Assembly: GCA_009886115.1 (NCBI GenBank)
Contig: VFJJ01000105.1
Coordinates: 1,891 to 65,890, forward strand
Source of the DNA: Actinomycetota bacterium
Lineage (GTDB): Bacteria > Actinomycetota > Acidimicrobiia > IMCC26256 > VFJJ01
Direction of reading: 5' to 3'
DNA: 64,000 bases
Numbering within the stretch: position 1 is the stretch's first letter; every line of letters begins with the position of its first letter. Under the pieces are notes generated by a model, which saw only the letters and a list, made by a program, of their open reading frames with translations, did not search any database and was not told where the DNA came from. Both the position numbers and the translations under genes were made by a program. Shown in pieces: positions 5,572-20,509 of the stretch.

Positions 5572-6432
5572 ATGACCGCCGCCGTCTCGCCCGTCACCGT
5601 CTCGCCCGTCACCACCACGATCGGCGCCGAGATCAGCGGGATCGACCTGACCCGGCCATTGAGCCCGGCTGAGGTCGAGCAGGTCGCCGCGGCGCTGCAC
5701 ACCTCGGGTGTCGTGTTCTTCCGCGGTCAACACATCAGCGACGAGCACCAGCGCGACCGGGCGTTGCAGTTCGGCACGCCCGAGATCTTCCCGTTCGCCG
5801 CGCCCGTTCATCCCGACATCCCCGAGGTGCACGCCGTCACGTTCGACGACGGCTCATTGGCCAAGGGGCGTATGGCCGACTCGTGGCACAGCGACGCGAC
5901 CTGGATGGTCGAGCCGCCCTATGGCTCGATCCTACGGGCCGTCGAGATCCCCGCCGTTGGCGGCGACACGTGCTGGTCCGATACCGCCGCGGCGTACGAC
6001 GATCTGTCCTCGTCCATGCAGCGCATGCTCGACGGGATGACCGCCACCCATGACTTCGTCACGTCGTTCGCGGCGTTCTTCGAAGGACCCGACGGGCCGG
6101 CTCGCCTCCAAGCCATCAGAGCCAAGCATCCACGGGTCAGTCACCCGGTCGTGCGGGTGCACCCGGTCACCGGGCGCAGGGCCCTGTATGTCAATCGCAA
6201 CTTCACCATGCGACTCGACGGGATGACCGATCGCGAGAACGAGGTGCTGCTGCCGTTCCTGTGCGACCACGTCCGCAGCCCCGACTTCCAGTGCCGTTTC
6301 CACTGGACCCCGGGTTCGATCGCGTTCTGGGACAACCGGGCGACCCAGCACTACGCCGTCCCCGATTACTCGGGCCGTCGCGTCATGCACCGCGTGATCC
6401 TCGCCGGCGACCGTCCCTTCGGTCCGTCGTAG
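5572..6432 (+). CDS. TauD/TfdA-family Fe(II)/2-oxoglutarate-dependent dioxygenase
   Basis: Motifs WHSDATW (HxD facial triad) and FWDNRATQHYAVPDY are present. The N-terminus contains a 15-nt x2 tandem repeat (VSPVTVSPVT). Confidence 0.9.
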   Translation: MTAAVSPVTVSPVTTTIGAEISGIDLTRPLSPAEVEQVAAALHTSGVVFFRGQHISDEHQRDRALQFGTPEIFPFAAPVHPDIPEVHAVTFDDGSLAKGRMADSWHSDATWMVEPPYGSILRAVEIPAVGGDTCWSDTAAAYDDLSSSMQRMLDGMTATHDFVTSFAAFFEGPDGPARLQAIRAKHPRVSHPVVRVHPVTGRRALYVNRNFTMRLDGMTDRENEVLLPFLCDHVRSPDFQCRFHWTPGSIAFWDNRATQHYAVPDYSGRRVMHRVILAGDRPFGPS

Positions 6433-6514
6433 CGAACGCACCCGTCACGCGCTCCGCGACCGCGACCCCGACTCCCATCACGACGCCACTGGTTCTGCCG
6501 AAGCACGGACGTCG

Positions 6515-7390
6515 CTACGGGATGATCTCGCCGGCGGCTCGGGCTGACATGCGGGTCGGACGGGCCAGGTGGGACCATTTGGGTTCGTTGCCCTCGGGGA
6601 GGTCGCCGAGGATCGTCACCCGGTTGATCGTCCGTGTGCCCTCGAAGTCGTTCACCACGAAATGCTGCGTGCACCGGTTGTCCCACATGGCGATGGTGCC
6701 CTGGGTCCACTGGTAGCGGACGGTGAAGCGGGGGTCGGACGCCAAGCGCATGAGGAAGCTGCGCAGCATCTCGCTCTCGTCGAAGCTCAACTGCGGGTAT
6801 CGCCCGAGGAACTGCCCGCTGAAGTACAAGCAGCGCTTGCCGGTCTCGGGGTGCACCCGCACCGCCGGATGCTCGGCCTTCTGGTCGGGATTGCCGTAGA
6901 TGGCCGCAGTGTGAATGGCCGTGAGCCCGTCGAGCAGCTCCTTCATCGGCTGCGAGAGCGCCTCGTACACCAGGTACTGGTTCGACCACATCGTGTCGCC
7001 GCCGACGTCGGGCGTCTCGATCATGTTCAGGATCGACATGACGGGCGGACGGGCCTCGAAGGTGCAATCGGTGTGCCAGGTGTCGGCCACGCCCCCGGTC
7101 TCGGCGCGCAGCTCGACCACCTCGGGGTGATCATCGTCGACCTTGTTGATGAAGCGGTGGATCTCCATCTCGCCCCAGATCGAGGCGTAGGCCCGGTGCT
7201 GGTCGGGGTTCAGGTGCTGATCGGGGAAGAACAGCACCAGGTGCTCGTTCAGCAGGGCTCTGACGGCCGCTTGTTGGGCCAGCGAGACGGGACGCTTGAG
7301 ATCGATGCCCCGCACCTCAGCTCCGAGAGATCCGGCGACCCTGCGGACGTCGAACGCGACCTCGGACTCGACCACCGATTGAGCCGTCAT
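6515..7390 (-). CDS. TauD/TfdA-family Fe(II)/2-oxoglutarate-dependent dioxygenase (paralog, convergent)
   Basis: Motifs WHTDCTFEARPP...GGDTMWSNQ...MWDNRCTQHFVVNDF are present. The start overlaps the TetR stop (TCATGA context at 7387-7390). Confidence 0.9.
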   Translation of the reverse strand: MTAQSVVESEVAFDVRRVAGSLGAEVRGIDLKRPVSLAQQAAVRALLNEHLVLFFPDQHLNPDQHRAYASIWGEMEIHRFINKVDDDHPEVVELRAETGGVADTWHTDCTFEARPPVMSILNMIETPDVGGDTMWSNQYLVYEALSQPMKELLDGLTAIHTAAIYGNPDQKAEHPAVRVHPETGKRCLYFSGQFLGRYPQLSFDESEMLRSFLMRLASDPRFTVRYQWTQGTIAMWDNRCTQHFVVNDFEGTRTINRVTILGDLPEGNEPKWSHLARPTRMSARAAGEIIP

Positions 7391-8043
7391 GACTTCCTCC
7401 TCCGTGTGGATGGACGTTCGAGCGCCGGGCCACCGGGCGGTCCCGACAGCATTCCCGCCAGCGCGTCGACGATGTGCTCGATCAGCTCGCGTGCCGCGAT
7501 CGATCCGCCGCCGGCACGCCAGGCGCCCCCGGAGCGGCCGAGATCGGACAGGGCCGCGCTCGCAGCGTCGACCGCCAGCGCGAATCGGAAGCGTCGAACC
7601 TCGACCTCGCTCGTGGGTAGCGCCCGAGCGAGCAGCGCGTCGATGCGAGCGAAGCTCGGGCGGAACAGCTCCGTCGCCAGGTCGCGATACTCAGGAGCCG
7701 ATGCGTGCAAGCGGGCCAGGAACCCAGGGTATGCGCAGCGCTCGCCGGTGGGGTCGAGCGCCATCTCGGCCAGTGGCCACACCCACGCGGCTGCGACGTC
7801 GCGGACGGTCACCGTGGACCGCTGGTCGAGATCGGCCAGCATGAGATCGCGCGCCCGCTTGACCTCGCCCATACGCCGTTCGAGGATGGCTCGCACGAGC
7901 GCGGCCTTGGATCCGAAGTGGTAGTGGATGGCCGCAGCGTTGGCCCCGGCAGCCGCGGTGACGGCCCGGGTGGGAACCGCCTCGATGCCACGCTCGGCGA
8001 AGAGCCGCTCAGCCACCCAGAGCAAGCGCTCGGGGGTGGCCAT
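7387..8043 (-). CDS. TetR/AcrR-family transcriptional regulator
   Basis: The sequence MATPERLLWVAERLFAERGIEAVPTRAVTAAAGANAAAIHYHFGSKAALV is a TetR N-terminal HTH. An alternative upstream start at 8139 is given by the track ORF. Confidence 0.8.
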   Translation of the reverse strand: MATPERLLWVAERLFAERGIEAVPTRAVTAAAGANAAAIHYHFGSKAALVRAILERRMGEVKRARDLMLADLDQRSTVTVRDVAAAWVWPLAEMALDPTGERCAYPGFLARLHASAPEYRDLATELFRPSFARIDALLARALPTSEVEVRRFRFALAVDAASAALSDLGRSGGAWRAGGGSIAARELIEHIVDALAGMLSGPPGGPALERPSTRRRKS

Positions 8044-8338
8044 GACCGGCGCGGCGCGCGTCGCGCCGAGCGCCTCGGGGTCGAGCAACGGTGGGAGCGC
8101 AGCGACGGGAGCGACCATCGGCGGCGACGCTACCACCATTCAAGCAATCGTTTCAAGCGGTTGCCTGACTCCGACACCCGGAGTCGATGGGATGGCGCGA
8201 CGATCGTGACTCGTTTGCCGGCTTCGCTCGGCGTCACGGTCGAGCAGCTCGATGTGTCGCGGGGAATCGACGATGAGACCTCGGGACCGGGCAAGCAGGT
8301 CGTTCCGGGAGTGCTCGGGGCGTCGGTAGCATCGAAGG

Positions 8339-9355
8339 GTGATGAGCGGAGCGTCTCGCGAGCGACGCCTCGGCGTTGCGGTGGTGCTGAACCTCGTGAT
8401 CGTCGCGGTACAGGTCGCCTTCGGCATCGTCGCCGGGTCACTGGGCCTCATCGCCGATGCAGGGCACAACCTCACCGACGTGGGCGCCGTCGCCCTGTCG
8501 TTGTTCGCCATCCGCTACGCCCGGAGGAGATCGTCCGAGCGACGGAGCTTCGGGAACCATCGCGCCACGGTGCTTGCGGCACAGGCCAACGCCGTTGCCA
8601 TCCTGGCTGTGACCGCGGTCATCTCGTTCGAGGCCGTGCAACGTCTCGGCGATCCCGACCCGGTCGACGGCGGCGTCGTCATGGTGGTGGCCCTCATCGC
8701 AGCGGCCGTCAACGGCTTTTCGATCCTGGTGCTGCGCGAACGACACCACGGGGTCCACGACGGCGGACCGGGCGGGCACCGAGCCCACGACGGCAGTGTT
8801 CGTGAGCCGCTCCACGACGAACGGGAAGGCGATCTCAACATGCGTTCGGCCATGGTGCACATGGTCGGTGACGCCGCTGCCTCCGTTGGTCTGGCGATCA
8901 GTGGTGGGGCGATCCTGCTGCTCGACGGTGCGTACTGGCTCGACCCAGCCGTGTCGCTCGCCATCGCGACGCTCATCGGGATTCAGGGCTGGGGTCTGGT
9001 GCGAGCGACGAGTGAGATGCTTCTCGAGTCGACGCCGATCGGGATCAACCTTGCGAGCCTCACCGACACCATGGAGACGATCCCCGGCGTCGACCACGTG
9101 CACGATCTCCACGTGTGGAGCCTCAACAGCGACATCCGGGCCTTGTCGGCGCACGTGGTGATCGACGGCCATCCCACGCTCGAGGAGGCCCAAGTGGTGG
9201 CCCAGCAGCTGCGGCAGACCCTCGGAACCCGGTTCGGTATCGCTCACGCCACCCTCGAACTCGAGTGCGAGTCGTGCTCCGACGAGGGACCGTGGTGCGC
9301 CATCGAGCCGGCTGGGTTCGAATCTCGAGGTGGAGGGCCCGGCGGCCACCACTGA
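8339..9355 (+). CDS. Cation diffusion facilitator (CzcD/ZitB-like) metal efflux transporter
   Basis: The sequence LNLVIVAVQVAFGIVAGSLGLIADAGHNLTDV is the CDF signature. There are six predicted TM segments, a His-rich loop (HHGVHDGGPGGHRAHDG) and a C-terminal cytoplasmic domain (HVHDLHVWSL). Confidence 0.9.
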   Translation: MMSGASRERRLGVAVVLNLVIVAVQVAFGIVAGSLGLIADAGHNLTDVGAVALSLFAIRYARRRSSERRSFGNHRATVLAAQANAVAILAVTAVISFEAVQRLGDPDPVDGGVVMVVALIAAAVNGFSILVLRERHHGVHDGGPGGHRAHDGSVREPLHDEREGDLNMRSAMVHMVGDAAASVGLAISGGAILLLDGAYWLDPAVSLAIATLIGIQGWGLVRATSEMLLESTPIGINLASLTDTMETIPGVDHVHDLHVWSLNSDIRALSAHVVIDGHPTLEEAQVVAQQLRQTLGTRFGIAHATLELECESCSDEGPWCAIEPAGFESRGGGPGGHH

Positions 9356-9398
9356 GCTCGCCCTCAAGGCTCTCCCAGCCGGTGTCGAAACAGCGGCG

Positions 9399-10850
9399 GT
9401 GAGCGACCACCATCGGGTACTCGACGCGGCTCCTATCCGAACTCTCGATGACTACATCGCAGAAGGCGGCGGACGAGGCCTGCACGCGGCACGCGACCAC
9501 GACCCCGGGACGATCATCCGCATGATCGAGGCCTCGGGCCTCAGGGGTCGTGGTGGGGCCGGGTTCCCGACCGGGAAGAAGTGGCGGACCGTGTCGTCGC
9601 ACCGCTCGGGGTCGCTGGCCACCAGCGTGGTGGTCAACGCCGCCGAGGGCGAGCCGGGCACGTTCAAGGACCGGACGATCATCCGTCGCAACCCGTTCAA
9701 GCTCTTGGAGGGCGCACTCATCGCCTGCCGCGCCGTGGGCGCGAACCGCATCTTCGTGGGGACCAAGGAGCACTTCCACATCGAGGTCGCTCGTCTGCTC
9801 AACGCCGTCGACGAGGTCGTGGCCGCAGGATGGGCTCAGGGCGTCACCATCGAGGTCGTGCGCGGCCCGAGCTCGTACCTGCTCGGCGAAGAGACCGCTC
9901 TGCTCGAGGTGATCGACGAGCGGGCCCCGTTTCCGCGCATCGCACCGCCCTACCGCCATGGTGTGCAGGAGGTGGGGCTGGCAACGGGATACAGCGGCCA
10001 GATCGTGATGGCCTCCCGGGGCACGGCCACCGAGGCCCCGCCGACGCTGGTGAACAACGTCGAGACCATGTCGAACATCGCCTCGATCCTGGCCCACGGG
10101 CCCGACTGGTTCCGCGAGGTCGGCACGGCCGATTCGCCGGGCACGATCGTCTGCACGGTCAGCGGGCACACGACCAAGCAGGGCGTGTGCGAAGTGCCCA
10201 TGGGCCTGCCCCTGCGCCGGGTGCTCGAACGCATCGGCGGTGGGCCACACGCGGGCCGAGAGTGGACCGTGATGATGCCAGGAGTCTCGAACCCGTTGCT
10301 GTTGGCCGAGAAGTTCGACACCCCCGTGTCGTACGAGGCGCTCGCTGCCGCTGGGAGCGGGCTGGGATCGGGGTCGTTCATCGTGTTCGACGACACGCTC
10401 GACCCGGTCGCTCTCGCCTATGGCGTGTCGCGCTTCTTGTCGATCGAGTCGTGCGGGCAGTGCACGCCGTGCAAGAAGACCGGTATGAAGATCACCGAGC
10501 ACCTCGATGCCCTCAGGCAGTCGAAGGCCAAGCCCTGGGACGTCAACGAGGTCAAGCGTCGCATCCCGTTGGTGAACGAGAGCGCTCGGTGCTACATCGG
10601 CCATCAGCAGCGGACGGTGCTCGAGAGCATCCTCGGCCTGTTCCCCGAGGCGTTCGAAGCCCATGGCGACGGACGGGTGCCCGGCGCCGAGCCCGAGGCG
10701 ATCATCCCCATCCTCGACATCGTCGACGGTACGGCCGTCTACGATGTCGACCATTGGGAGAAGCAACCCGACTGGACGTTCGGCGTGTGGTCGGGCGCCA
10801 GCCCCGTCGAGCTGCTCGGCCACAAGATCCCCGAGCAGCTCTACCACTGA
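9399..10850 (+). CDS. NuoF-like NADH-binding FMN/[4Fe-4S] flavoprotein (complex I 51-kDa subunit homolog, stand-alone)
   Basis: Motifs present are SGLRGRGGAGFPTGKKW (FMN site), NAAEGEPGTFKDR (NADH site) and ESCGQCTPCK (N3 cluster cysteines). The start is uncertain (GTG 9399 preferred; GTG 9330 would overlap the CDF gene). Confidence 0.8.
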   Translation: MSDHHRVLDAAPIRTLDDYIAEGGGRGLHAARDHDPGTIIRMIEASGLRGRGGAGFPTGKKWRTVSSHRSGSLATSVVVNAAEGEPGTFKDRTIIRRNPFKLLEGALIACRAVGANRIFVGTKEHFHIEVARLLNAVDEVVAAGWAQGVTIEVVRGPSSYLLGEETALLEVIDERAPFPRIAPPYRHGVQEVGLATGYSGQIVMASRGTATEAPPTLVNNVETMSNIASILAHGPDWFREVGTADSPGTIVCTVSGHTTKQGVCEVPMGLPLRRVLERIGGGPHAGREWTVMMPGVSNPLLLAEKFDTPVSYEALAAAGSGLGSGSFIVFDDTLDPVALAYGVSRFLSIESCGQCTPCKKTGMKITEHLDALRQSKAKPWDVNEVKRRIPLVNESARCYIGHQQRTVLESILGLFPEAFEAHGDGRVPGAEPEAIIPILDIVDGTAVYDVDHWEKQPDWTFGVWSGASPVELLGHKIPEQLYH

Positions 10851-11714: not shown

Positions 11715-11813
11715 GGCGAGCCCACGCCTTTTTTCGCGATTTCGCGCACCCCCGGTGCAAAAGCGCGAAGAAAGCAGCCCGAGCGCAGCCCGAGCGCGGC
11801 GCGAGCGGCGCCG

Positions 11814-13331
11814 ATGTTGCACATGATCGCGGTCACCCGGACCGGTACTGTGCGGCGAAGAGGCGAGGAGAACGGCCTGGGGGGCGAGGTGGCGGGCACG
11901 ACAGCTGGTCGGGGACCGGGAGCGACGTGGCGACGGCTGCGCGTTCTGGAGCGCGCGACCCGTCCGGTCGATCCACTCATCGCGGCAGCCCTCGATCGGC
12001 GCTGGGACGGGCTTCCGGAGCACGTCAAGACCCCGGCCCAGCTCGTGGGGCGCCGCACAACGGGATGCGAGGGTACGCACGGGGTGTTCCCGCAGTGTGA
12101 CTTCACCTGCAAGCCCTGCTACCACTCCAAGGACGCCAACCGGGTGGCGATCGACGGGCCGCACACCATTCGGGAGGTCGAGCGGCAGATGGCCCACCTC
12201 GAGAGCGAGCGCGGGCCGTCGGCGTACGCTCAGCTCATCGGGGGCGAGGTGTCGCTGCTCCATCCCGACGACCACGCGGCGACGATCGAGACCATGCGCC
12301 GTCACGGCCGCGTGCCCATGAGCTTCACCCACGGCGACATCGACGCCGAGTACCTCGAGCGTCTCACCATCAAGCCCGACGGCACACGGCGCTTCGATTT
12401 CCTGTCGTTCGCCGCGCATTTCGACATGACGATGTTCGGCCGGCGGGGCCTCGAAAAGCCCACGTGCGAACGCGAGCTGAACCCCGCGCGCCAGCGGTTC
12501 GTCGAGATGTTCGACCGCCTCCGCCGCGACCACGGCGTACGTTCGTACCTCGCCCACAACATGACAGTCACCCCCACGAACCTCGACCAGGTCGCCGAGG
12601 TCGTCCGCGAGTGCCGGTTCATGGGCTTTCGCATGTTCTCGTTCCAGCCCGCAGCCTTCGTGGGGAACGAGACCCGATGGACAGCCGACTACCGAGCGAT
12701 GTCCGACGACGACGTGTGGGCCGAGGTCGAGCGAGGTGTCGGTGTGCGCCTGCCGTACAAGGCCGTCCAGTTCGGCGACTTCCGCTGCAACCGCGTCGTG
12801 TGGGGCGTGTGGGTCGGCGAGCGGTTCGTTCCCGTTCTCGACGATGACGTCCCCGCCGACCTGCGGGCTCGCGACCTGTTCCTGCATGCCTTCCGCGGCA
12901 ACTTCCTCTTCGTGCGCAGACCAGTCATGACGACCCGGGTGGTCCGGACGGTGCTCCGCCATCCACGGCTGGTGCCGGTCGGCCTGGCCTGGGCCCGACG
13001 TTTCGTCCGGCGGGGCGGCGGCATCCTTGCGTTCCGCAAGCCCTTGCGCCCCATGACGTTCGTGATGCACAGCTTCATCGACGCCGCCGATGTCGCGCCC
13101 GCCTGGGAGGCGCTCCAGCGAGGCGAGACCCTCTCCGACGAAAGGCTCAAGGCCACGCAGGAGCGGTTGGCCGCGTGCGTGTACTCGATGGCACATCCCG
13201 ACACCGGGCAGATCGTCCCAGCCTGCGTACAGCACAGCCTGCTCGACCCCCTCGAGAACGTCCAGCTCGTCGAGTTGCTCCCCCGCTCCCCCCGCTCTCG
13301 TGCGAGGCTCGCCGACGCCACTCGGGCCTGA
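11814..13331 (+). CDS. Radical SAM enzyme of unassigned subfamily (about 505 aa)
   Basis: A CDFTCKPCY motif (Cx3Cx2C, C95/C99/C102, nt 12096-12119) is followed by a GGEVSLL (SAM-binding GGE) motif. A long C-terminal extension ends ...ACVYSMAHPDTGQIVPACVQHS. The exact start is uncertain (ATG 11814 or 11823). Confidence 0.8.
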   Translation: MLHMIAVTRTGTVRRRGEENGLGGEVAGTTAGRGPGATWRRLRVLERATRPVDPLIAAALDRRWDGLPEHVKTPAQLVGRRTTGCEGTHGVFPQCDFTCKPCYHSKDANRVAIDGPHTIREVERQMAHLESERGPSAYAQLIGGEVSLLHPDDHAATIETMRRHGRVPMSFTHGDIDAEYLERLTIKPDGTRRFDFLSFAAHFDMTMFGRRGLEKPTCERELNPARQRFVEMFDRLRRDHGVRSYLAHNMTVTPTNLDQVAEVVRECRFMGFRMFSFQPAAFVGNETRWTADYRAMSDDDVWAEVERGVGVRLPYKAVQFGDFRCNRVVWGVWVGERFVPVLDDDVPADLRARDLFLHAFRGNFLFVRRPVMTTRVVRTVLRHPRLVPVGLAWARRFVRRGGGILAFRKPLRPMTFVMHSFIDAADVAPAWEALQRGETLSDERLKATQERLAACVYSMAHPDTGQIVPACVQHSLLDPLENVQLVELLPRSPRSRARLADATRA

Positions 13332-13942
13332 TGTTCGACCGGGCCCTGCGTACGGCGAAGGATCGTGCGCTCCGACCCACGGCGCAGGTGGCGACGAGGA
13401 TCGTCGGACCCCTGCCGTTGACGCTGGCCGCGGCCGCGGCCAGCGTCGCGGCCGCTGTTGTGGCGTCCGACGGTCGGACGTGGCCGGCGGTGGCGCTCTG
13501 GTTGGCCTCACGGGTGCTCGACGGTCTCGACGGGACGGTCGCTCGTCTGCGGAGCGCCGCCACCGACCTCGGCGGCTACCTCGACATCGTGCTCGACACG
13601 ATCGGGTACGCGGCCGTCCCGCTCGGGGTGGCGTGGCACGTCGACGACCGCAGCACCTGGATGGCCGTCGCGCTGCTGCTCGGCTCGTTCTACGTGAACG
13701 CCATCTCGTGGGCGTACCTGTCGGCGGTGCTCGAAAAGCGCAGCCGCGGTGCGGCCTCCACCGGGGAATCCACAGCCGTCACCATGCCCGGCGGGCTCAT
13801 CGAGGGGGCCGAGACCATCGCACTGTTCTCGGGCATGCTCATCTGGCCGCAGCACGCCGCGACCTGGTTCGTCCTGATGGCCGCAGCGGTGGGCTTCACC
13901 ATCGCGCAACGGGTGGTCTTTGCCGTGAGGGAGCTCGGGTGA
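13331..13942 (+). CDS. CDP-alcohol phosphatidyltransferase family protein (YnjF-like, small)
   Basis: DGLDGTVARLRSAATDLGGYLDIVLD matches DGx2ARx7-8Gx3Dx3D (nt 13520-13596). The protein is multi-TM. Its start ATG shares the A of the radical SAM TGA (TGATG at 13329-13333). Confidence 0.85.
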   Translation: MFDRALRTAKDRALRPTAQVATRIVGPLPLTLAAAAASVAAAVVASDGRTWPAVALWLASRVLDGLDGTVARLRSAATDLGGYLDIVLDTIGYAAVPLGVAWHVDDRSTWMAVALLLGSFYVNAISWAYLSAVLEKRSRGAASTGESTAVTMPGGLIEGAETIALFSGMLIWPQHAATWFVLMAAAVGFTIAQRVVFAVRELG

Positions 13943-14811
13943 CGGGCCGTGTCGACGGCCATCGGCGCGGCCCCGACCGAGCGCGGATGGTCCAACGCGC
14001 CGCGGCCCTCACCACGCTGCTCGGCGCGGTCGTGGCCTGGCGCGTGTATCAGCACCGCACCGGAATGGGCACGACCGAGACCCTGCAACGATTCGTCGAC
14101 CGGGTCGACTCGGCCCGATGGGGCGTGCCGGCCTACCTCGGCGTCTACCTGGCCCGGCCGCTCGTGCTGTTCCCGGCCACGCTGCTGACGGTGGCCGGCG
14201 GGCTGATCTTCGGCCCGGTCACCGGTATCGTCGTGGTCGTTGTGGGGGCCAACGCCTCGGCGATGGTCGCCTACGGCGTCGGCCGGCTGCTCACGAAGCG
14301 ACCCGGTGCCGCGGTACCCGCCGGTGCTTCTGCCGTGACCGCCGGTGCTGCCAGTGCCGCCAACGCCGTCGACGGCGCGACCCCGTCAGCCGTGCTCGGC
14401 TTCGCCAACCGCTGGGCCGACCGCATGCGCCGCAACAGCTTCGAGTCGATCTTGCTGATGCGCTTGTTGTTCTTGCCCTATGACCTCGTCAACTACTCCG
14501 CCGGGCTGTTGCGGATCCGTTGGGTGCCGTTCCTCGGTGCGACCGCCATCGGCTCGCTCCCCGGCACCGTCTCGTTCGTGCTCCTCGGGGCCTCGCTCGA
14601 GCGGGTCGACGAAGGCATCGACGGCCTCGACCCGGCGGCGCTGATCGTCTCGGTCGGGCTGATCGCCGCCAGCATCACGACGTCGCGCCTGTTGCGGCGC
14701 CGGCAATCGGTCGCTGGCGGCGGCACGGGCGCGGGCGCCGGACCAGGTGTGGGCCGGGGCGATGGCGATGGCGATGGCGATGGCGATACGGCGCTGCAGG
14801 CGATGCCGTGA
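13939..14811 (+). CDS. TVP38/TMEM64 (DedA-related, SNARE-associated) family membrane protein
   Basis: The sequence LARPLVLFPATLLTVAGGLIFGPVTGIVVVVVGANASAMVAYGVGR...LRLLFLPYDLVNYSAGL is the TVP38 pattern. A GTGA overlap at 13939-13942 joins it to the upstream gene (alternative ATG 13987). The C-terminal GD x5 comes from a GGCGAT repeat. Confidence 0.8.
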   Translation: MTGRVDGHRRGPDRARMVQRAAALTTLLGAVVAWRVYQHRTGMGTTETLQRFVDRVDSARWGVPAYLGVYLARPLVLFPATLLTVAGGLIFGPVTGIVVVVVGANASAMVAYGVGRLLTKRPGAAVPAGASAVTAGAASAANAVDGATPSAVLGFANRWADRMRRNSFESILLMRLLFLPYDLVNYSAGLLRIRWVPFLGATAIGSLPGTVSFVLLGASLERVDEGIDGLDPAALIVSVGLIAASITTSRLLRRRQSVAGGGTGAGAGPGVGRGDGDGDGDGDTALQAMP

Positions 14812-16379
14812 CTCACCCGTCGACGATGCGCTCGATGCGCCGGCGCGGACACCCGCGATCAGCCCGGGCATCAGCCGAGGCATCAGCCGGGGCATCAGCC
14901 GAGGCATCAGCCGGGGCCATCGGTCTCGCTGAGGTCGCGGGGGCCTTCGACGCGGTCGTCATCGGAGCGGGCTCGGCCGGACTCACGGTGGCCGTTGGTC
15001 TGGCCGGGCTCGGCAAGCGGGTGGCCCTGGTCGAATCGGGGCCGATCGGGGGCGACTGCACGAACACCGGGTGCATCCCGTCCAAGACGCTGATCCACCA
15101 AGCGTCTCGCCACGGCCCGCTCCCTGGACCAGCGCCGGCGGTTGACGGGCTCAGCGCAGCAGCGGCGGCGCTCGCACTCGTACGCCAACGCCGAGACGAG
15201 CTCGCCCGGCGCGAGCGTGCCGAGATACCGGCCATCCCCGGCATCGAGCTCGTCGAGGGGCGAGCGCGGCTCGTGGCCGCGGGCCGGGTCGAGATCACCC
15301 GAGCCGATGGCGTCACTCGCTCGATCGACGCGGCGCACGTGGTCGTCGCGACCGGGGCCGGTCCCCGCCCGCTGGTGATCGACGGGCTCCCCGCGGCGCT
15401 GGCCCTCACCAACGAGACCCTCTTCGAGCAGCCCGACCTCTCCGGCCATCTCGTGGTGATCGGCGGTGGGGCGATCGGCGTCGAGATGGCCTGCGCGGTG
15501 CGACGCCTCGGTGCACGGGTCACCGTGGTGACTCGCGGCACGAGCCTCCTGAGCGCCGAGGACCGCGCTGCAACCTCGGTACTGGTGGCCGAGCTGCGCG
15601 CTCGCGGGATCGACGTGCGAACCAGTGCCGAAGCGGCCCGATTCGAGCACGCCACGAGCACCCTGGTGCTCGGTGACGGGTCGCGCCTCGATGCCGTCGA
15701 TCAGGTGCTCGTGGCCATCGGGCGGTCTCCCCGGGTCGGGGGCCTCGGCCTCGAGCACGTCGGCGTCAAGATCACCTCGTCGGGAATCGCGACCGATCAC
15801 GTCGGTCGAACCGGCGTGGCGGGTCTGTGGGCGGTCGGCGACGTCACCGACCTCTCCCACACGACCCATGGCGCGAATGCCTACGGGCGACGAGTCGTGC
15901 AGGCGATCGCCTTCCCGATGATTCCCATCCGCAACCGGCCGATCCTGGTGCCCACCGCGGTGTTCTCCGATCCGGAGCTGGCTTCGGTGGGGCTCTCGCT
16001 CGCCGAGATCGAGCGCCGTTGGCCGACGGCGGCCGTGCGGCGCTTCGAGATCGACTTGGCCTCCCTCGATCGGGCGCACACCGACGACGTACGTCACGGG
16101 ATCATGATCGTGATCGCCGAGCGCCTGACCGGACGGGTCCTGCGCGCGACCACCGTCGGGCCTCACGCGTCCGAGACGATCGGCATCGTCACCTTGGCGA
16201 TCCAGCGCAACATCTCCCTCCATCGCCTGTACCGACTCGTGCACCCCTACCCCACCTTCGCGGCTGCGCTGGGCAAGGCCGCCGACGAGTTCACCCGCGA
16301 GACCCTGCCCCACCTCCCTCGCGAGAGCGCTGCCTGGCTCCGAACTCGCTTGCCCAAGGTCATCAGGAGCTTTCGATGA
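14808..16379 (+). CDS. Pyridine nucleotide-disulfide oxidoreductase (mercuric/glutathione reductase-like, class I flavoprotein disulfide reductase)
   Basis: The protein has FDAVVIGAGSAGLT (FAD GxGxxG), a GGDCTNTGCIPSK redox-active CxxxxC (nt 15057-15074), a second Rossmann motif VVIGGGAIGVE and a C-terminal dimerisation HPYPTF. A GTGA overlap at 14808-14811 joins it to the upstream gene (alternative ATG 14826). The N-terminus contains a 12-nt x4 repeat. Confidence 0.85.
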   Translation: MTHPSTMRSMRRRGHPRSARASAEASAGASAEASAGAIGLAEVAGAFDAVVIGAGSAGLTVAVGLAGLGKRVALVESGPIGGDCTNTGCIPSKTLIHQASRHGPLPGPAPAVDGLSAAAAALALVRQRRDELARRERAEIPAIPGIELVEGRARLVAAGRVEITRADGVTRSIDAAHVVVATGAGPRPLVIDGLPAALALTNETLFEQPDLSGHLVVIGGGAIGVEMACAVRRLGARVTVVTRGTSLLSAEDRAATSVLVAELRARGIDVRTSAEAARFEHATSTLVLGDGSRLDAVDQVLVAIGRSPRVGGLGLEHVGVKITSSGIATDHVGRTGVAGLWAVGDVTDLSHTTHGANAYGRRVVQAIAFPMIPIRNRPILVPTAVFSDPELASVGLSLAEIERRWPTAAVRRFEIDLASLDRAHTDDVRHGIMIVIAERLTGRVLRATTVGPHASETIGIVTLAIQRNISLHRLYRLVHPYPTFAAALGKAADEFTRETLPHLPRESAAWLRTRLPKVIRSFR

Positions 16380-17680
16380 GACGCACTTCGTTCCCGTGGC
16401 CCGCCCGCACCATTGGTCTGATCATGGCGTCGCTCATGGCGATCACGGCCTGCGGCAGCGACGACGACACCGGGTCCGGGTCCCCGTCAGCGTCGGGCTC
16501 GGTGGCCGAGATCCTCGACCCGTCCGACTGGGATGCGGTGGTCGAGGCCGCTCGCGGGCAAACGGTCAATTGGTACCTCTATGGGGGCTCGGAGAGCATC
16601 AACCGATTCGTCGACGAGACGTACGGGCCCGCCTTGTCGCAGCGGTACGACATCACCTTGAACCGGGTGCCCGTCGCCGACACCGTCGACGCCGTCAACC
16701 AGGTGCTGGCCGAAGCCGAGGCAGGCACCGAGAACGGATCAGTCGATCTCATCTGGATCAACGGCGAGAACTTCAGCACGCTCAAGGAAGCGGAGCTCTT
16801 GCTACCGGCGTGGGCCGAGGCGATCCCCGGCGCCGCCCTGGTCGACTGGGACAACCCGGCGATCAACCTCGACTTCGGCGTCCCGGTCGAAGGCCAGGAG
16901 AGCCCGTGGTCGTCGGCGCAGTTCCAGCTCGTCTACGACACGGCGCGCATGTCCGCCGACGAGTTGCCCCGGTCGTACGCCGCCATGAAGGACTGGGCCT
17001 GCGCCCACCCTGGGCGCTTCACCTACATCGCCCCCGGTCCCGGCGCCTTCCAGGGAACCCGGTTCGTCAAGGGAGCGCTGTACGAGCTCTCGGGCGATCC
17101 CGCGCTCTGGAAGTTGTTCGACCAGGCGCTCTGGGACCAGTGGTCGCCGGCGTTGTGGGCGTACCTCGACGAGCTCGCGCCCTGCCTGTGGCGCGAGGGC
17201 GAGACCTACCCCAAGGACGAGAACGAGCTCCACGCGCTCTTCGCCAACCAGGAGGTCGATTTCACGATCACCCAGGCGGCGGTCGGGCCCGGCTCCCTCA
17301 TCGCCGAGGGGCTCGTCCCGAGCACGGCCAAGGCCTTCGTGTTCGACGCCAACTCGATCGGCGACTTCAACTACGTGACCATCCCGGCGAACGCCGCCAA
17401 CGCCGCTGCTGCACTGGTACTGGCGAATCTCATCCTCGACCCGACGCTCCAGGCCCGTCAGATCGTGCCCGAGAACGGGTTCGGCCTCGGGTTCGCGATC
17501 GACGTCGGCCGGGTCAGCGATCCTGCGCAGCGTGCCGCGCTCGACACCGCGGCCGCATCGCTCGGCGACGCAGCGGCGCCGGCCGACGAGCTGGCCCGCG
17601 CGCTCGTCGGCGACGCCGCAGCCGAGTACCAGGACCTCGTCGAGCAGGGCTGGCGCGAGAACGTCTCGGGCGGGCTGTGA
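16376..17680 (+). CDS. ABC transporter substrate-binding lipoprotein, YnjB-like
   Basis: A lipobox LMAITACG is followed by NWYLYGGSESINRFVD...GSVDLIWINGENFSTLKEAELL, remembered as characteristic of the YnjB family. There is an ATGA overlap with the reductase stop (16376-16379). Confidence 0.8.
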   Translation: MRRTSFPWPARTIGLIMASLMAITACGSDDDTGSGSPSASGSVAEILDPSDWDAVVEAARGQTVNWYLYGGSESINRFVDETYGPALSQRYDITLNRVPVADTVDAVNQVLAEAEAGTENGSVDLIWINGENFSTLKEAELLLPAWAEAIPGAALVDWDNPAINLDFGVPVEGQESPWSSAQFQLVYDTARMSADELPRSYAAMKDWACAHPGRFTYIAPGPGAFQGTRFVKGALYELSGDPALWKLFDQALWDQWSPALWAYLDELAPCLWREGETYPKDENELHALFANQEVDFTITQAAVGPGSLIAEGLVPSTAKAFVFDANSIGDFNYVTIPANAANAAAALVLANLILDPTLQARQIVPENGFGLGFAIDVGRVSDPAQRAALDTAAASLGDAAAPADELARALVGDAAAEYQDLVEQGWRENVSGGL

Positions 17681-18597
17681 CCCCGTCGGTCCTGGGCGTC
17701 GATCGTGGGTGGGGTAGGGCCCTGCGGCTGAGCCCGGTGCTCATCGTGGTGGGGGGCTTGAGTGCCTACGCCGCGTGGATCGTGTTCCGCCAGAGCCTGG
17801 GTCTCGGTCTGGGTCTGGGTCCGAGCGCCGAGCGCAGCCCGGGTCGCGACGGTGGGGCGACGCTCGATGCCTATCGGCGGCTCGTCGAGGCCGACGGTTT
17901 CTGGCGTTCGTGGGCGTTCACGCTGTGGGTGGCCGCGGTCGGGACGATCTTGGCTGTCGTGGGAGCCGTGGCGGTCTTGTGGCACTGGACGCGTCGCCCC
18001 GGACGGGCCCGGCGGTTCGATCTCTGGCTGCTCCAGGTGAACCTGACGATCCCCCACGTCGTGTGGACGGTGGCCCTGCTCGCCACCTTCTCCCAGAGCG
18101 GTTGGGCGTCACGCCTCGTCGCCGCCGCGGGGCTGATCGACCGTCCGGCCCAGTTCCCGGTGCTGGTGCGCGACGCCTTCGGTGTGGGCATCATCGGGCA
18201 TCTGGTCACCAAGGAGCTCCCGTTCCTGGTGCTTGCCGGGGCTCCCCTCGCCGGCCGTCGGCTGGCGCCCCTCGTGCAGACGGCGGCCACCCTGGGCGCC
18301 GGGCCATGGCCCACGCTCCGGCGGGTGTTCCTCCCGGCGATCGTTCCGGTGCTCGTACCCGCGAGCCTCGTGGCGTTCGCCTTCGCCGTCGGCGCCTACG
18401 AGCCCGCCAGCGCGCTCGGTGTGAGCGACCCCCGGATGCTCTCGGTCGTGGCGCTCGAGCGTTATCGCGACCCCGATCTCCTTGTGCGGGCTGACGCCCA
18501 GGCGATCAGCGTCGTCCTGGCCCTGATCGTGATCGCCGTCGCAGTGGCCGTGTGGTCGGCCACCCGGCGCTGGTTCCCCAGGCGACCGGGACCATGA
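17677..18597 (+). CDS. ABC transporter permease (YnjC-like, first half)
   Basis: The protein is multi-TM with a permease EAA-like region (TAATLGAGPWPTLRRVFLPAIVP). There is a GTGA overlap with the binding-protein stop. Confidence 0.8.
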   Translation: MTPSVLGVDRGWGRALRLSPVLIVVGGLSAYAAWIVFRQSLGLGLGLGPSAERSPGRDGGATLDAYRRLVEADGFWRSWAFTLWVAAVGTILAVVGAVAVLWHWTRRPGRARRFDLWLLQVNLTIPHVVWTVALLATFSQSGWASRLVAAAGLIDRPAQFPVLVRDAFGVGIIGHLVTKELPFLVLAGAPLAGRRLAPLVQTAATLGAGPWPTLRRVFLPAIVPVLVPASLVAFAFAVGAYEPASALGVSDPRMLSVVALERYRDPDLLVRADAQAISVVLALIVIAVAVAVWSATRRWFPRRPGP

Positions 18598-19382
18598 CGG
18601 CCCGGATCGCATGGAGGGCGACAGCGCTCATCGTGCTGGCCGCGCCGCTGCTGACACTGGTGTTGCAGGCGTTCTCGACCCGCTGGTTCTTCCCCGACGC
18701 GCTGCCAGCCGAATGGACACTTCGAGGCTGGCGGGGCATCGGGTCCGACGACCGTACGCTGAGTGCCTTCGGTACCGGTGTGGTGGTGAGCGGGGCCGTC
18801 ACCGTGGCGAGCTGCGCGATGGCGTGGCCGGCCGCCCGGGTGCTGGCCCGCTCGAGTTTCCGGTGGCGGGGCCCGGTGATGGTGGTGTTGTTCGTGCCCC
18901 ATCTGGTGCCCGCCGTGGGCCTGGCCATTGGGCTCGACGTGGCCCTGCTCCGACTCGACCTGGCGGGAGGACGGCCCGGTGTGGTCCTGGCTCACCTCGT
19001 GACCACCATCCCCTACACGGTGGCCATCTTGACGGCGGTCTTCACCAGGCACGACGACCGGGCGCGCCAGCAGGCTGCCGTCCTGGGAGCAACGCCGTGG
19101 CAGGCGCTGCGGATGGTGACGCTGCGTCTGGTGGGGCCGGGGCTCGTCGTCGCCGCGCTGTTCAGTTTCCTCGTGTCGTGGAGCCAGTATCTCGTCACCC
19201 TGCTCGTGGGTGGAGGCCGGGTCGTCACGATCACCATGCTGGTGTTCAGCTCCGTGGCCGGCGGGAACCCCACCAGCATCGGTGTGCTCGCGCTCATGGC
19301 AGCGCTGCCACCCTTGCTGGTGCTGGTGCTGGCCGGCCGGATCGCCGTGCGCGAGATCGTCGACCCGACGGCATCGCCATGA
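18594..19382 (+). CDS. ABC transporter permease (YnjC-like, second half)
   Basis: The protein is multi-TM with an EAA-like region (AAVLGATPWQALRMVTLRLVGPG). There is an ATGA overlap at 18594-18597. Confidence 0.85.
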   Translation: MTARIAWRATALIVLAAPLLTLVLQAFSTRWFFPDALPAEWTLRGWRGIGSDDRTLSAFGTGVVVSGAVTVASCAMAWPAARVLARSSFRWRGPVMVVLFVPHLVPAVGLAIGLDVALLRLDLAGGRPGVVLAHLVTTIPYTVAILTAVFTRHDDRARQQAAVLGATPWQALRMVTLRLVGPGLVVAALFSFLVSWSQYLVTLLVGGGRVVTITMLVFSSVAGGNPTSIGVLALMAALPPLLVLVLAGRIAVREIVDPTASP

Positions 19383-20509
19383 ACGAGGCGTCGACCCCGG
19401 CCGGCGTGGAGGTCGTGGGACTGGTCAAGCGCTACGGGCCCCGCGGCGCAGCGCGAGCGGTGCTCGACGGTGTCACCTTCGACGTGCCGGCCGGCTCCTT
19501 GACGTGCCTGCTCGGCCCGTCGGGAAGCGGCAAGTCGACGATCCTCGGATGCCTCGCCGGCCTGATCGAGCCCGACGGTGGGACGATCACGATCGGCGGG
19601 CGGACGATGGATCGGCTCGCTCCGCACCGGAGACCCGTCACCTTGTTGATGCAGACTGCCCAGCTCTTCGGCTTCCTGTCGGTGGCAGAGAACGTCGGAT
19701 TCGGGCTACAAGTTCGGGGAGTGGGCGCCGCCGAACGGGCGCGACGGGTCGACGAGCTCCTTGCGTCCGTGGGCCTCGTCGGTCTCGGCGATCGTTCACC
19801 GGCCGGGCTCTCGGGCGGCGAGCAACAGCGGGTGGCGCTGGCCCGGGCGCTGGCGATCGAGCCCGAGGTGCTGCTCCTCGACGAGCCGTTGGCCAACCTC
19901 GACCCTCCGGTGCGTCGTGAGCTCCAGGATCTGTTGGTGGAGATTCACCGCCGGACCGGCACCACGACCGTGCTCGTCACCCACGACGTGAGCGAGGCTC
20001 TGGCCCTCGGCGAGCAACTGGTGGTGCTCGCCGGCGGACGGGTGGCGGCGAGTGGCCGTCCCGAGGAGCTGTATCGCAGGCCCCCCACGGTGTCGGTGGC
20101 CCGGATGCTGGGGATCGAGACCGTGCTCACCGGCCGGCTGAACGACGGCGTGCTCGCGGGCCCGTGGGGGGCGCTCACGGTGTCGGCCGCCAACGCCCGG
20201 GGCCCGGTCACCGGCGGGCGCCCATCCACCTGGGTGATCCGGCCCGAGCTGGTCGAGGTCTCCAGCGCGGGGGACGCCAGCGCGGGGGACGCCAGCGCGG
20301 CCGGCCACGCCGCGTCGGGGCTCGATGTCGTGGTCGAGACCGTCCGCTACGCCGGAGCCACGCTGCAGCTGCGCATGATGGCCCCCGCCGATACGCGCAT
20401 CGCCGCGACGATCACGACGGCCGCCGGCGCTCCCCCACCCGTTCCCGGCCAGCGGCGTGTCGCCCGGCTCCCCGCCGACTCGCTGGTCGAGGTCGCCGAC
20501 GACGGCTGA
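19379..20509 (+). CDS. ABC transporter ATP-binding protein (YnjD/PotA-like with C-terminal regulatory domain)
   Basis: Motifs present are Walker A GPSGSGKST, signature LSGGEQQRVALARA, Walker B LLLDEP and an H-loop VTHD. There is an ATGA overlap at 19379-19382. A 15-nt x2.5 repeat encodes SAGDASAGDASA. Confidence 0.9.
   Translation: MNEASTPAGVEVVGLVKRYGPRGAARAVLDGVTFDVPAGSLTCLLGPSGSGKSTILGCLAGLIEPDGGTITIGGRTMDRLAPHRRPVTLLMQTAQLFGFLSVAENVGFGLQVRGVGAAERARRVDELLASVGLVGLGDRSPAGLSGGEQQRVALARALAIEPEVLLLDEPLANLDPPVRRELQDLLVEIHRRTGTTTVLVTHDVSEALALGEQLVVLAGGRVAASGRPEELYRRPPTVSVARMLGIETVLTGRLNDGVLAGPWGALTVSAANARGPVTGGRPSTWVIRPELVEVSSAGDASAGDASAAGHAASGLDVVVETVRYAGATLQLRMMAPADTRIAATITTAAGAPPPVPGQRRVARLPADSLVEVADDG

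Follow-up and report, generated by a model that had tools for sequence, protein, structure and literature searches.

What could an operon do that places a radical SAM (rSAM) enzyme, a CDP-alcohol phosphatidyltransferase-family protein, a TVP38/DedA membrane protein and a flavoprotein disulfide reductase ahead of an ABC importer? Eight such genes occupy positions 11814–20509 on the plus strand of the window, the 64,000-nucleotide stretch of actinobacterial DNA analysed here, and at each of the seven junctions stop and start codons may overlap by 1 or 4 nt (Table 1). The original prediction was of a lipid head-group system, a reading that is retained as the best guess, with its mechanism put conditionally below. 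The family names first given to the eight proteins agree with profile searches, and every motif was found where it had been placed.

Table 1. Genes, junctions and leader of the operon.
Feature	Positions	Strand	Basis
Gene 1, rSAM enzyme, unnamed family, 505-aa ORF	11814..13331	+	motif, domain searches, AF2 model
Gene 2, YnjF-like CDP-alcohol phosphatidyltransferase, 203 aa	13331..13942	+	PF01066, YnjF similarity
Gene 3, TVP38/DedA (VTT domain) membrane protein	13939..14811	+	PF09335, YdjX/YdjZ similarity
Gene 4, class-I flavoprotein disulfide reductase	14808..16379	+	PF07992, PF00070, PF02852
Gene 5, YnjB-family lipoprotein substrate-binding protein	16376..17680	+	NF008633, YnjB similarity
Gene 6, ABC permease ~ N-terminal half of YnjC	17677..18597	+	PF00528 (BPD_transp_1)
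Gene 7, ABC permease ~ C-terminal half of YnjC	18594..19382	+	PF00528 (BPD_transp_1)
Gene 8, YnjD-like ABC ATPase, TOBE_2 C-terminal domain	19379..20509	+	PF00005 (ABC_tran), PF08402
Junction 1/2, TGATG	13329-13333	+	string confirmed
Junction 2/3, GTGA	13939-13942	+	string confirmed
Junction 3/4, GTGA	14808-14811	+	string confirmed
Junction 4/5, ATGA	16376-16379	+	string confirmed
Junction 5/6, GTGA	17677-17680	+	string confirmed
Junction 6/7, ATGA	18594-18597	+	string confirmed
Junction 7/8, ATGA	19379-19382	+	string confirmed
Intergenic leader after upstream SDR gene; likely promoter region	11715..11813	+	sole sizeable non-coding gap around operon

Each junction start is in frame with a long ORF, and the start codons used are inferred ones. 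Gene 3 may begin at GTG 13939, which has AGGGAG just before it, or at ATG 13987, where a 100% identical database protein of 274 residues starts; gene 4 has an alternative in-frame start at ATG 14826. With these alternatives, the largest junction gap is still only 44 nt. In an independent assembly (L086), identical 4-nt overlaps are called at the reductase/binding protein and binding protein/permease junctions. A search of the leader for a sigma-70-like site found none, and its one terminator-like hairpin lies on the opposite strand; the operon interior showed no promoter- or terminator-like sites. The genes flanking the operon in the window encode TauD, TetR, SDR and P450 proteins. Judged by this arrangement, the eight genes form a real, tightly packed operon. 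As 4-nt overlaps are frequent in high-G+C operons, those found here are unremarkable, and they are evidence of tight packing, not of the stoichiometric co-expression once read from them. The non-chance element is the recurrence of the gene set.

The rSAM motif of gene 1, CDFTCKPC (12096–12119), supplies the CX3CX2C cysteines C95, C99 and C102, and four further cysteines (C85, C325, C455 and C471) are invariant. Its AF2 model (pLDDT 86) forms a radical SAM barrel. The conserved core begins near residue 40; because the first ~35 residues are non-conserved, with pLDDT below 50, the real start may lie 3′ of 11814. Profile searches matched the family to no family-level model, which bears out the view that the enzyme stands outside any well-characterised family. 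By homology, it is a member of a highly conserved, unnamed rSAM family whose sequences form over 2,500 clusters at 55–88% identity.

Searched against the PDB, the superfamily profile matched only GDGT-MAS (7TOL, E 1e-14; profile positions 56–442 aligned to chain residues 109–502) and SkfB. Paralogues of gene 1 reach 40–60 bits on the Tes and TrsS models, and gene 1 itself scores 15 bits on Tes against a cut-off of 450. The C-terminal half alone gave nothing significant in the PDB. Foldseek with the gene 1 model placed generic rSAM enzymes on top, and 7TOL was absent from the 50 matches listed. On the profile evidence, no characterised enzyme is closer than GDGT-MAS/Tes, which couples lipid tails; the relationship is distant and confined to the rSAM core. 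GDGT-MAS/Tes and TrsS, the latter an uncharacterised radical SAM (seleno)protein family, resemble gene 1 in length (about 470–530 aa), in the offset of the CX3CX2C motif and in having an extended C-terminal region that contains cysteines. However, the genomic partners of Tes are not the transferase, DedA protein, reductase and importer of this operon, and we know of no report of tetraethers from aerobic-type Actinomycetota, the hosts of the window's rSAM enzyme.

Six of the eight proteins have matches in E. coli, namely YnjF, YdjX/YdjZ, YnjB, YnjC (in two halves) and YnjD. The transferase carries the motif DGTVAR-x8-G-x3-D-x3-D (inside 13520–13596), scores 46.3 bits on PF01066 (cut-off 22), is 33% identical to YnjF (E 5e-15) and falls under the cut-offs of the AIP and PIP synthase models. 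Gene 3 scores 64.5 bits on PF09335 (cut-off 33.9) and resembles YdjX (E 3e-14) and YdjZ; its C-terminal tail reads GDGDGDGD. The claim of a YnjB-like binding protein holds: gene 5 scores 397 bits on NF008633 (PRK11622, YnjB family; cut-off 203), is 41% identical to E. coli YnjB (E 7e-60) and has the lipobox ITAC with invariant Cys26. The ATPase is 35% identical to YnjD.

In E. coli K-12, the corresponding genes run ydjX (DedA)–ydjY–ydjZ (DedA)–ynjA (AhpD-like)–ynjB–ynjC–ynjD–ynjE, with ynjF adjoining, and some other bacteria carry a CDP-OH transferase, a VTT protein and YnjBCD in one run without an rSAM gene. Since they are joined in both settings, the TVP38 protein, the transferase and the importer form one pre-existing module and not parts of two separate pairings fused here. 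By these matches, genes 2, 3 and 5–8 correspond, in an actinobacterium, to the E. coli YnjF/YdjX–YdjZ/YnjBCD set, and the additions made by the operon are the rSAM enzyme and the reductase. Both clusters hold a DedA protein, a YnjB-family binding protein, YnjC-type permease(s), a YnjD-type ATPase, a YnjF-type transferase and a thiol-redox protein, the latter being AhpD-like YnjA in E. coli and the flavoprotein reductase here. In contrast to the rSAM-headed operon, the E. coli cluster lacks a radical SAM gene and includes two DedA genes, the 4Fe-4S protein YdjY, the rhodanese YnjE and a single fused permease; its ynjF is transcribed separately from the opposite strand rather than within one overlapping unit. 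No characterisation of YnjF, YnjBCD or YdjX/Z was found in the searchable literature.

The reductase has its redox disulfide in CTNTGC (15057–15074), and in the PDB it is nearest to dihydrolipoamide dehydrogenases, glutathione amide reductase and MerA; it meets no equivalog model cut-off. Fusions of TVP38 proteins to such reductases, noted earlier as annotated in other phyla, were absent from the best 120 TVP38 homologues, in which PF09335 was the sole domain; the two are adjacent, not fused, in the window and at L090.

Neighbourhoods of the gene 1 family were surveyed in 80 species loci of 20 kb. As annotated, the reductase is the rSAM gene's most constant neighbour, lying within 10 kb in 52 loci. 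A CDP-alcohol transferase is found nearby in 29 and a YnjB-type binding protein in 23; both lie within 10 kb in 21 loci in shuffled order, and with the reductase in 17. This recurrence covers Acidimicrobiia, Thermoleophilia, Dehalococcoidia, Propionibacteriales, Mycobacteriales and Actinoplanes, with partners varying in order and orientation over several classes, so the gene set does extend beyond one genome. A 33%-identical paralogue from another lineage, on a contig that also bears OmpA and TonB-type genes, lies in the order CDP-OH transferase, rSAM, DUF547, reductase, VTT, with the importer absent. From such gene orders, a four-gene core of rSAM enzyme, CDP-alcohol transferase, reductase and TVP38 protein recurs across phyla.

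The supposed tie between the rSAM enzyme and the Ynj module does not hold. The YnjF/YnjB module is present in 31 of the 80 loci and a different one, a phosphoesterase–Rv1681-type rSAM fusion with a TIGR04283 glycosyltransferase, in 32; no 20-kb locus holds both, and the two are interleaved on one rSAM tree. Ynj modules lacking the rSAM gene exist too, so the two are separable. Loci of the second module also encode a SelL-related redox protein and, in some cases, an enzyme resembling MTA phosphorylase, and its neighbours look like small-molecule chemistry. Its nearest known counterparts are the hopanoid side-chain logic of HpnH/HpnG/HpnI and the 'rSAM/selenodomain' system, now 'arsenosugar biosynthesis', which we take to comprise ArsS (TIGR04167) and the TIGR04283 glycosyltransferase. 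The glycosyltransferase, above its cut-off, is common to the arsenosugar system and the second module; however, the second-module rSAM is Rv1681-type (268 bits, cut-off 380) rather than ArsS (39 bits), and no arsenic methyltransferase was seen. Neither the phosphoesterase–rSAM fusion, the TIGR04283 glycosyltransferase nor an MTAP-like gene is present in the window.

These neighbours give some weight to the possibility, on balance rather unlikely, that a soluble small molecule, and not a lipid, is what the operon makes or salvages. Candidates are a cofactor, a low-molecular-weight thiol and an organo-chalcogen or organo-arsenic sugar. The common step would then fall to the rSAM enzyme and reductase, and only a side branch or activation step to the transferase; second-module lineages would build the compound from a 5′-deoxyadenosyl unit, and lineages like that of the window would import it through YnjBCD. 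The alternation of the two modules on one tree fits this, as do a natural fusion of the TIGR04283 glycosyltransferase (231 bits, cut-off 182) to an rSAM of the gene 1 family and the widespread thiol-redox neighbours (SelL-related protein, glutaredoxin, thioredoxin-like proteins, DsbD_TM, ZAS-type anti-sigma factors). Among paralogues, DUF547 with a CxxxxC motif accompanies the rSAM gene in all four loci examined, one enzyme lies beside BshC and a PIG-L deacetylase, and another is fused to a VPGUxxT thioredoxin-like domain. Left unexplained, however, are the importer's tightest partners, the membrane transferase and DedA protein, and their presence beside the paralogue that lacks the importer.

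Defence against a metal, metalloid or oxidant is improbable. Here a MerA-like reductase would act on imported or membrane-bound toxic species (e.g. Hg, Se, Te, As, Cu), with an FbpA-like binding protein in the importer and an rSAM enzyme that forms or cleaves a carbon–heteroatom bond. MerA is indeed among the reductase's best PDB relatives, yet its 277 bits on the MerA model miss the cut-off of 454, dihydrolipoamide dehydrogenase scores higher, and the protein has neither a C-terminal Cys pair nor a metal-binding N-terminal domain. Similarly, the AF2 model of the binding protein resembles cluster-D proteins (FbpA, PhnS-like, AfuA, PotD), with ferric-ion binding proteins as its best fold matches, but the search mixes iron, polyamine, phosphonate and sugar-phosphate binders and singles out no ligand class. 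Near one homologue there are ArsR-type regulators, a rhodanese and DUF302, and NCBI names the associated glycosyltransferase 'arsenosugar biosynthesis'; against this, the window lacks ArsM, ArsS, MerB, MerT and MerP, and the operon's flanks are of other kinds. Slightly less credible again is the absence of any common pathway, with a compact genome having packed an unrelated rSAM enzyme beside a Ynj module and a housekeeping disulfide reductase. The sub-modules do occur singly elsewhere (Ynj without rSAM, rSAM without Ynj), and overlapping starts are generally common in high-G+C genomes; nevertheless, the same partners regroup around the rSAM gene in varied order and orientation in several classes, and around the paralogue in another lineage, and the reductase is its neighbour in most loci.

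It is tentatively proposed, at somewhat less than an even chance, that the operon encodes a system for membrane-lipid head groups, centred on a conserved radical/redox core. This reading is favoured by the packing (overlaps or gaps of at most 44 nt, free of internal promoter- or terminator-like sites), the six matches to the E. coli cluster, the transferase motif and PF01066 score, the shuffled recurrence with a four-gene core in another phylum, and the path from the rSAM superfamily profile to 7TOL. Ynj modules elsewhere also adjoin enzymes that release head groups (Exo_endo_phos phosphodiesterases or a YdjM/Zn-dependent PLC-like hydrolase). It is weakened by the low Tes score and matchless C-terminal half of gene 1, the 32 loci that carry no lipid enzyme, the indifference of the binding-protein fold to ligand class, and the existence of Ynj modules without the rSAM gene.

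Phosphatidylcholine synthase (Pcs) condenses CDP-diacylglycerol with choline that a binding-protein-dependent ABC importer brings in, and the operon may follow a comparable logic of importing a polar alcohol and condensing it through a CDP-alcohol phosphatidyltransferase-family enzyme. Unlike Pcs, its transferase is closer to AIP and PIP synthases, though under their cut-offs; its binding protein is YnjB-type, not ChoX-type; and rSAM, DedA and reductase partners are not known from Pcs systems. In the head-group system, the lipoprotein and YnjCD-type importer would take up a polar compound, which the YnjF-like enzyme, by analogy with Pcs and imported choline, would join, as such or as a derivative, to a lipid via a phosphodiester. 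Movement of the lipid, or of a lipid carrier, across the membrane may be the task of the TVP38/DedA protein. Radical modification of the compound or the lipid would fall to the rSAM enzyme, probably with a second Fe-S cluster on C85, C325, C455 and C471, and the NAD(P)H-dependent reductase would keep a thiol/disulfide of the product or a partner protein reduced.

The radical SAM (rSAM) protein encoded by gene 1 belongs to a large family that has no name, family model or proposed reaction. The family comprises more than 2,500 homologous clusters (90% identity clustering; 55-88% identity) across classes, its names go no further than 'radical SAM domain-containing protein', and relatives of the window rSAM are encoded in at least 566 species genomes. 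The CX3CX2C cluster motif (CDFTCKPC, residues 95-102) does not vary among 60 homologues or among the paralogues, which are full-length relatives of 31-39% identity recovered by an exhaustive search of 1.84 billion representatives and without informative names. Four Cys residues outside this motif (C85, C325, C455 and C471) are also invariant, being kept even in 30%-identical paralogues, and suggest that the enzyme may bind a second Fe-S cluster. The AF2 model (pLDDT 86, pTM 0.86) contains a radical SAM barrel. All of the top 25 PDB matches in Foldseek are radical SAM enzymes, with a probability of 1.0 and a TM of only ~0.3, and they are generic ones: SkfB, DesII, anSME, SuiB, PqqE and MoaA.

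Weak NCBIfam matches (E ~0.01) relate the window rSAM to the tetraether lipid synthase Tes (GDGT-MAS), to viperin and to TrsS, an uncharacterised radical SAM (seleno)protein family. Against the Tes model NF045702, the window rSAM scored 15 bits (E 0.007; equivalog cut-off 450) and the paralogues 22-60 bits, and paralogues at 40-60 bits were seen with the Tes and TrsS models. A profile of the family only (A1) gave no meaningful PDB match, and the link to GDGT-MAS (PDB 7TOL) emerged only once the 31-39% identical paralogues entered the profile. The resulting superfamily profile (A3) matched 7TOL over nearly its full length (E 1.1e-14), and 7TOL was the sole PDB match of one paralogue, P0216, searched alone (E 9e-10). 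Because a profile of the C-terminal half (A5) found nothing in the PDB, a Tes-like C-terminal domain is not claimed, and we place the rSAM tentatively, as a remote relative, in a radical SAM clade related to Tes and TrsS and do not call it a Tes. Bacterial Tes homologues are themselves putative.

The window has ~70% G+C, and the rSAM gene is the first of the eight + strand ORFs of the operon. The stop/start overlaps of the original prediction (TGATG, GTGA, GTGA, ATGA, GTGA, ATGA and ATGA) are present in the sequence, and its three motifs lie where it had placed them. The start codons are inferred, and genes 3 and 4 have alternative ATG starts, that of gene 3 being the start of a 274-aa database protein of 100% identity; with both alternatives, the largest junction gap is 44 nt. 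Two starts are preceded by SD-like sequences, and an independent assembly agrees on the 4-nt overlaps on either side of the binding-protein gene. A promoter and terminator scan found no promoter- or terminator-like sites within the eight genes. Given the overlaps and this absence of internal signals, we accept the genes, on sequence grounds, as one probable operon; the stoichiometric co-expression put forward in the original prediction does not follow from sequence.

Coordinates of features in the window and in comparison loci from other genomes
Feature	Locus	Position	Strand	Remark
TauD/TfdA-family dioxygenase genes (two)	Window	5572-8139	Opposite strands	Adjoin TetR regulator gene
NuoF-like gene	Window	9330-10850		Complex1_51K and NADH_4Fe-4S domain; two genes upstream of operon
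Leader of rSAM gene	Window	11740-11800		T-run (CCTTTTTTCGCGATTTCGCGC) and repeated GCCCGAGCGC units
Terminator-like hairpin (one, predicted)	Window	11795-11777	-	In leader
Eight-gene operon	Window	11814-20509	+	
SD-like AGGGAG	Window	Before GTG 13939		
Gene 3 alternative start	Window	ATG 13987		
Gene 3/gene 4 boundary	Window	14740-14808; 14808-14960		Low-complexity extensions
Gene 4 alternative start	Window	ATG 14826		
SD-like AGGAG	Window	Before ATG 16376		
P0118 fusion gene	L084	632-2920		Glycosyltransferase-rSAM
P0118 fusion gene	L085	2384-4672		Glycosyltransferase-rSAM
Paralogue and DUF547	L090	7346-12466		rSAM 31-39% identical
Paralogue and DUF547	L091	8001-10639		rSAM 31-39% identical
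Paralogue and DUF547	L092	7228-9458		rSAM 31-39% identical
Paralogue and DUF547	L093	8001-10182		rSAM 31-39% identical
Transferase/VTT/YnjBCD run	L087	415-5041		No rSAM
Transferase/VTT/YnjBCD run	L088	7620-13109		No rSAM
Transferase/VTT/YnjBCD run	L089	7603-13934		No rSAM
E. coli K-12 ydjX-ynjF cluster	L081	1,833,401-1,841,403		selD ~5.5 kb beyond ynjF

Among ten flanking ORFs scanned against Pfam, those upstream include genes for two TauD dioxygenases, a TetR regulator, a CDF transporter, a NuoF-like protein and an SDR, and those downstream encode a cupin and a P450. These genes look unrelated to the operon. The TauD/TfdA pair and its regulator look like a separate small catabolic unit. The NuoF-like gene has no adjacent gene for another complex I subunit, and in L001, the locus of an 88%-identical relative, ~4.5 kb separate a NuoF-like gene and the rSAM. 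Where genes 3 and 4 meet, the product of gene 3 ends in GDGDGDGD and that of gene 4 begins with the repeat ASAEASAG ASAEASAG ahead of its FAD-binding motif.

Among the Pfam families expected for the operon, PF01066, PF09335, PF07992 and PF02852 were detected, but PF04055 fell short for the window rSAM (17.6 bits, gathering score 29.5); many of its close homologues have a precomputed PF04055 match. Gene 2 carries a complete CDP-alcohol motif (DGTVAR LRSAATDL G GYL D IVL D) and scores 46.3 bits against PF01066 (cut-off 22). Its nearest named families are archaetidylinositol-phosphate synthase (57.9 bits) and phosphatidylinositol-phosphate synthase (46.6 bits), both scores being far short of the equivalog cut-offs of 180 and 170 bits. 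Gene 3 encodes a TVP38/DedA (VTT domain) protein (PF09335, 64.5 bits; cut-off 33.9). The TVP38-reductase fusions mentioned in the original prediction did not occur among the 120 best TVP38 homologues.

Gene 4 encodes a class-I flavoprotein disulfide reductase (PF07992, 183.6 bits; PF02852, 71.6 bits) with the CxxxxC redox disulfide GGDCTNTGCIPSK. In the PDB it is closest to E3 dihydrolipoamide dehydrogenases, glutathione amide reductase and MerA, and no equivalog cut-off was reached in the NCBIfam scan. Assignment as MerA was rejected (TIGR02053, 277 bits, below 454; C-terminus ...LPKVIRSFR without a Cys pair). The score against the dihydrolipoyl dehydrogenase model TIGR01350 was 285.7 bits, below 408.8. 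The gene 5 binding protein is YnjB-like, as expected, with 397 bits against NF008633 (PRK11622; cut-off 203). It has no sequence relative in the PDB. A fold search with its model placed it in cluster D but gave similar scores for binders of iron, polyamines, phosphonates, sugar phosphates and opines, and thus does not allow a ligand to be named. Genes 6-8 encode two permeases and an ATPase with a TOBE domain.

Six of the eight proteins have counterparts in a single region of the E. coli K-12 chromosome. In BLASTP searches against E. coli K-12 proteins, gene 2 matched YnjF (33% identity, E 5e-15), gene 3 matched YdjX (26%, E 3e-14) and YdjZ (28%, E 4e-9), gene 5 matched YnjB (41% over 318 aa, E 7e-60), genes 6 and 7 matched the N-terminal (29%, E 1e-7) and C-terminal (30%, E 2e-9) halves of YnjC, respectively, and gene 8 matched YnjD (35%, E 2e-28). 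In K-12, ydjX-ydjY-ydjZ-ynjA-ynjB-ynjC-ynjD-ynjE form one run, with ynjF adjacent on the opposite strand. The two pairings that had been taken as separately recurring are thus one cluster in this organism. Co-located DedA, YnjB, YnjC, YnjD and YnjF homologues are common to the E. coli cluster and the window, whereas YdjY (4Fe-4S), YnjA (AhpD-like) and YnjE (rhodanese) belong to E. coli only: BLASTP found no counterpart among the eight proteins of the operon or in two ORFs upstream of it, and the ten flanking ORFs scanned against Pfam fall into unrelated families. With selD nearby, YdjY, YnjA and YnjE give the E. coli cluster a sulfur/thiol-redox theme that parallels the actinobacterial loci.

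In other bacteria, the CDP-OH transferase, VTT protein, binding protein, two permeases and ATPase form a self-contained run without an rSAM, as in L088 and L089. Exo_endo_phos phosphodiesterase genes lie near rSAM-less runs, and in L087 a gene for a YdjM/Zn-dependent PLC-like hydrolase lies directly 3' of the ATPase gene. The literature searched yielded no functional study of ynjF, ynjB, ynjC, ydjX or ydjZ.

The surroundings of the rSAM were compared in the 80 best species loci, with partners scored by tblastn within ~10 kb. ORF clustering was not used for these counts; the GC3-based ORF caller lets antisense frames through its filter, which makes it noisy within the operon. The disulfide reductase is the most frequent partner (52/80 loci), followed by the CDP-alcohol transferase (29/80), the YnjB-type binding protein (23/80) and TVP38 (13/80). 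Transferase and binding protein occur together in 21 of the 80 loci, in 17 of them with the reductase, and the gene set thus recurs outside the window genome, as the original prediction requires. The hosts include Acidimicrobiia, Thermoleophilia, Dehalococcoidia, Propionibacteriales, Mycobacteriales, Actinoplanes and Nakamurella; this wide range, together with varied gene order and orientation, argues that the association is not inherited synteny.

Clustering of neighbouring ORFs revealed a second recurrent set around the rSAM. It consists of a metallophosphoesterase fused to an Rv1681-type rSAM (268 bits against NF049973, whose cut-off is 380), a TIGR04283 glycosyltransferase (194 bits, cut-off 182), an FAD oxidoreductase, a SelL-related redox protein and, sometimes, an MTA-phosphorylase-like gene. 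The Ynj-type module is present in 31 loci, the second module in 32, both in none and neither in 17, the last being mostly short contigs. No gene of the second module, whether for the glycosyltransferase, the phosphoesterase-rSAM fusion or the SelL-related protein, occurs anywhere in the 64-kb window. The two locus types interleave roughly by taxon in a neighbour-joining rSAM tree, pointing to a single orthologue that combines with either of two accessory modules. Furthermore, in the 762-aa protein P0118 a TIGR04283 'arsenosugar biosynthesis' glycosyltransferase (231 bits, cut-off 182) is N-terminal to an rSAM of the window family (60% identity). This natural fusion ties the rSAM to the second module in Rosetta-stone fashion and, on sequence evidence, confirms their association as functional. 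Thiol-redox neighbours, namely glutaredoxin, thioredoxin-like proteins, DsbD_TM and ZAS anti-sigma factors, are common around the window rSAM family.

The loci of the paralogues extend the comparison across phyla. One locus with a 33%-identical paralogue contains, in this order, a CDP-OH transferase, the rSAM, DUF547, a disulfide reductase and a VTT protein on a contig with OmpA and TonB-type genes, and the four-gene core of the operon therefore recurs independently. DUF547 lies immediately 3' of the rSAM paralogue in all four loci examined. These DUF547 proteins are exported, carry a signal peptide and conserve the motif HFALNCAxxGCP (CxxxxC); otherwise, the literature searched mentions DUF547 only in plant class-IV glutaredoxins. 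In L093, BshC and a PIG-L deacetylase are encoded just upstream of the paralogue. Another paralogue, P0194 (597 aa), carries at its N-terminus a thioredoxin-like (seleno)protein domain of the VPGUxxT family, which at 71 bits stays under the cut-off (275).

A lipid head-group role for the operon is plausible and is put forward tentatively, based on the presence of a transferase and a DedA protein, on the action of the nearest characterised rSAM relative on membrane lipids, on the phosphodiesterase or PLC-like genes that adjoin Ynj modules elsewhere, and on the recurrence of the four-gene core. The small-molecule flavour of the second module and the strong redox context weaken this reading and favour instead a soluble thiol- or chalcogen-containing small molecule, imported or made de novo; such a product is conceivable, if rather doubtful. 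The cluster D fold of the binding protein does not discriminate between lipid and soluble product, and the arsenic natural-product papers offered nothing relevant to the locus. Metal or metalloid defence is improbable; for a gene set that recurs in such varied order and hosts, mere coincidence is more improbable still.

The lipid and module observations can be joined in a two-arm pathway, which as a whole we consider unlikely. The rSAM and the disulfide reductase would form the invariant core of an undescribed pathway with interchangeable synthesis and uptake arms. In the synthesis arm, the phosphoesterase-Rv1681-type rSAM, the MTA-phosphorylase-like enzyme and the TIGR04283 protein would generate a 5'-deoxyadenosine-derived sugar-like unit, and in the uptake arm YnjBCD would take in that unit. 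Within the uptake arm, YnjF would then join it to a phospholipid and the DedA protein would flip the lipid. The product, in Actinomycetota and Chloroflexota, would be a membrane lipid of a new, redox-active class bearing a thiol or chalcogen.

The superfamily of every component is already known, and so, as an uncharacterised E. coli locus, is the Ynj/Ydj cluster. What appears to be new is the unnamed rSAM family with its distant Tes/TrsS kinship, its constant pairing with the disulfide reductase, the two alternative modules that never occur together in 80 loci, and the resulting link to the E. coli y-genes. The only characterised relative of the family is a maker of archaeal tetraether lipids. 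The apparent either/or between an importer/transferase module and a biosynthetic-looking one suggests that a single compound is either taken up or synthesised. Culturable strains carry the Ynj-type locus (Actinoplanes sp. NPDC023801) and the second type (Streptomyces regalis NRRL 3151 and Streptomyces sp. HK10). The stable partnerships of the rSAM offer a testable way into ydjX/ydjZ, ynjBCD and ynjF, which have resisted assignment, and may point to a physiological substrate for a TVP38/DedA protein. If true, the two-arm pathway would provide the first function for the E. coli ydjX-ynjF genes.
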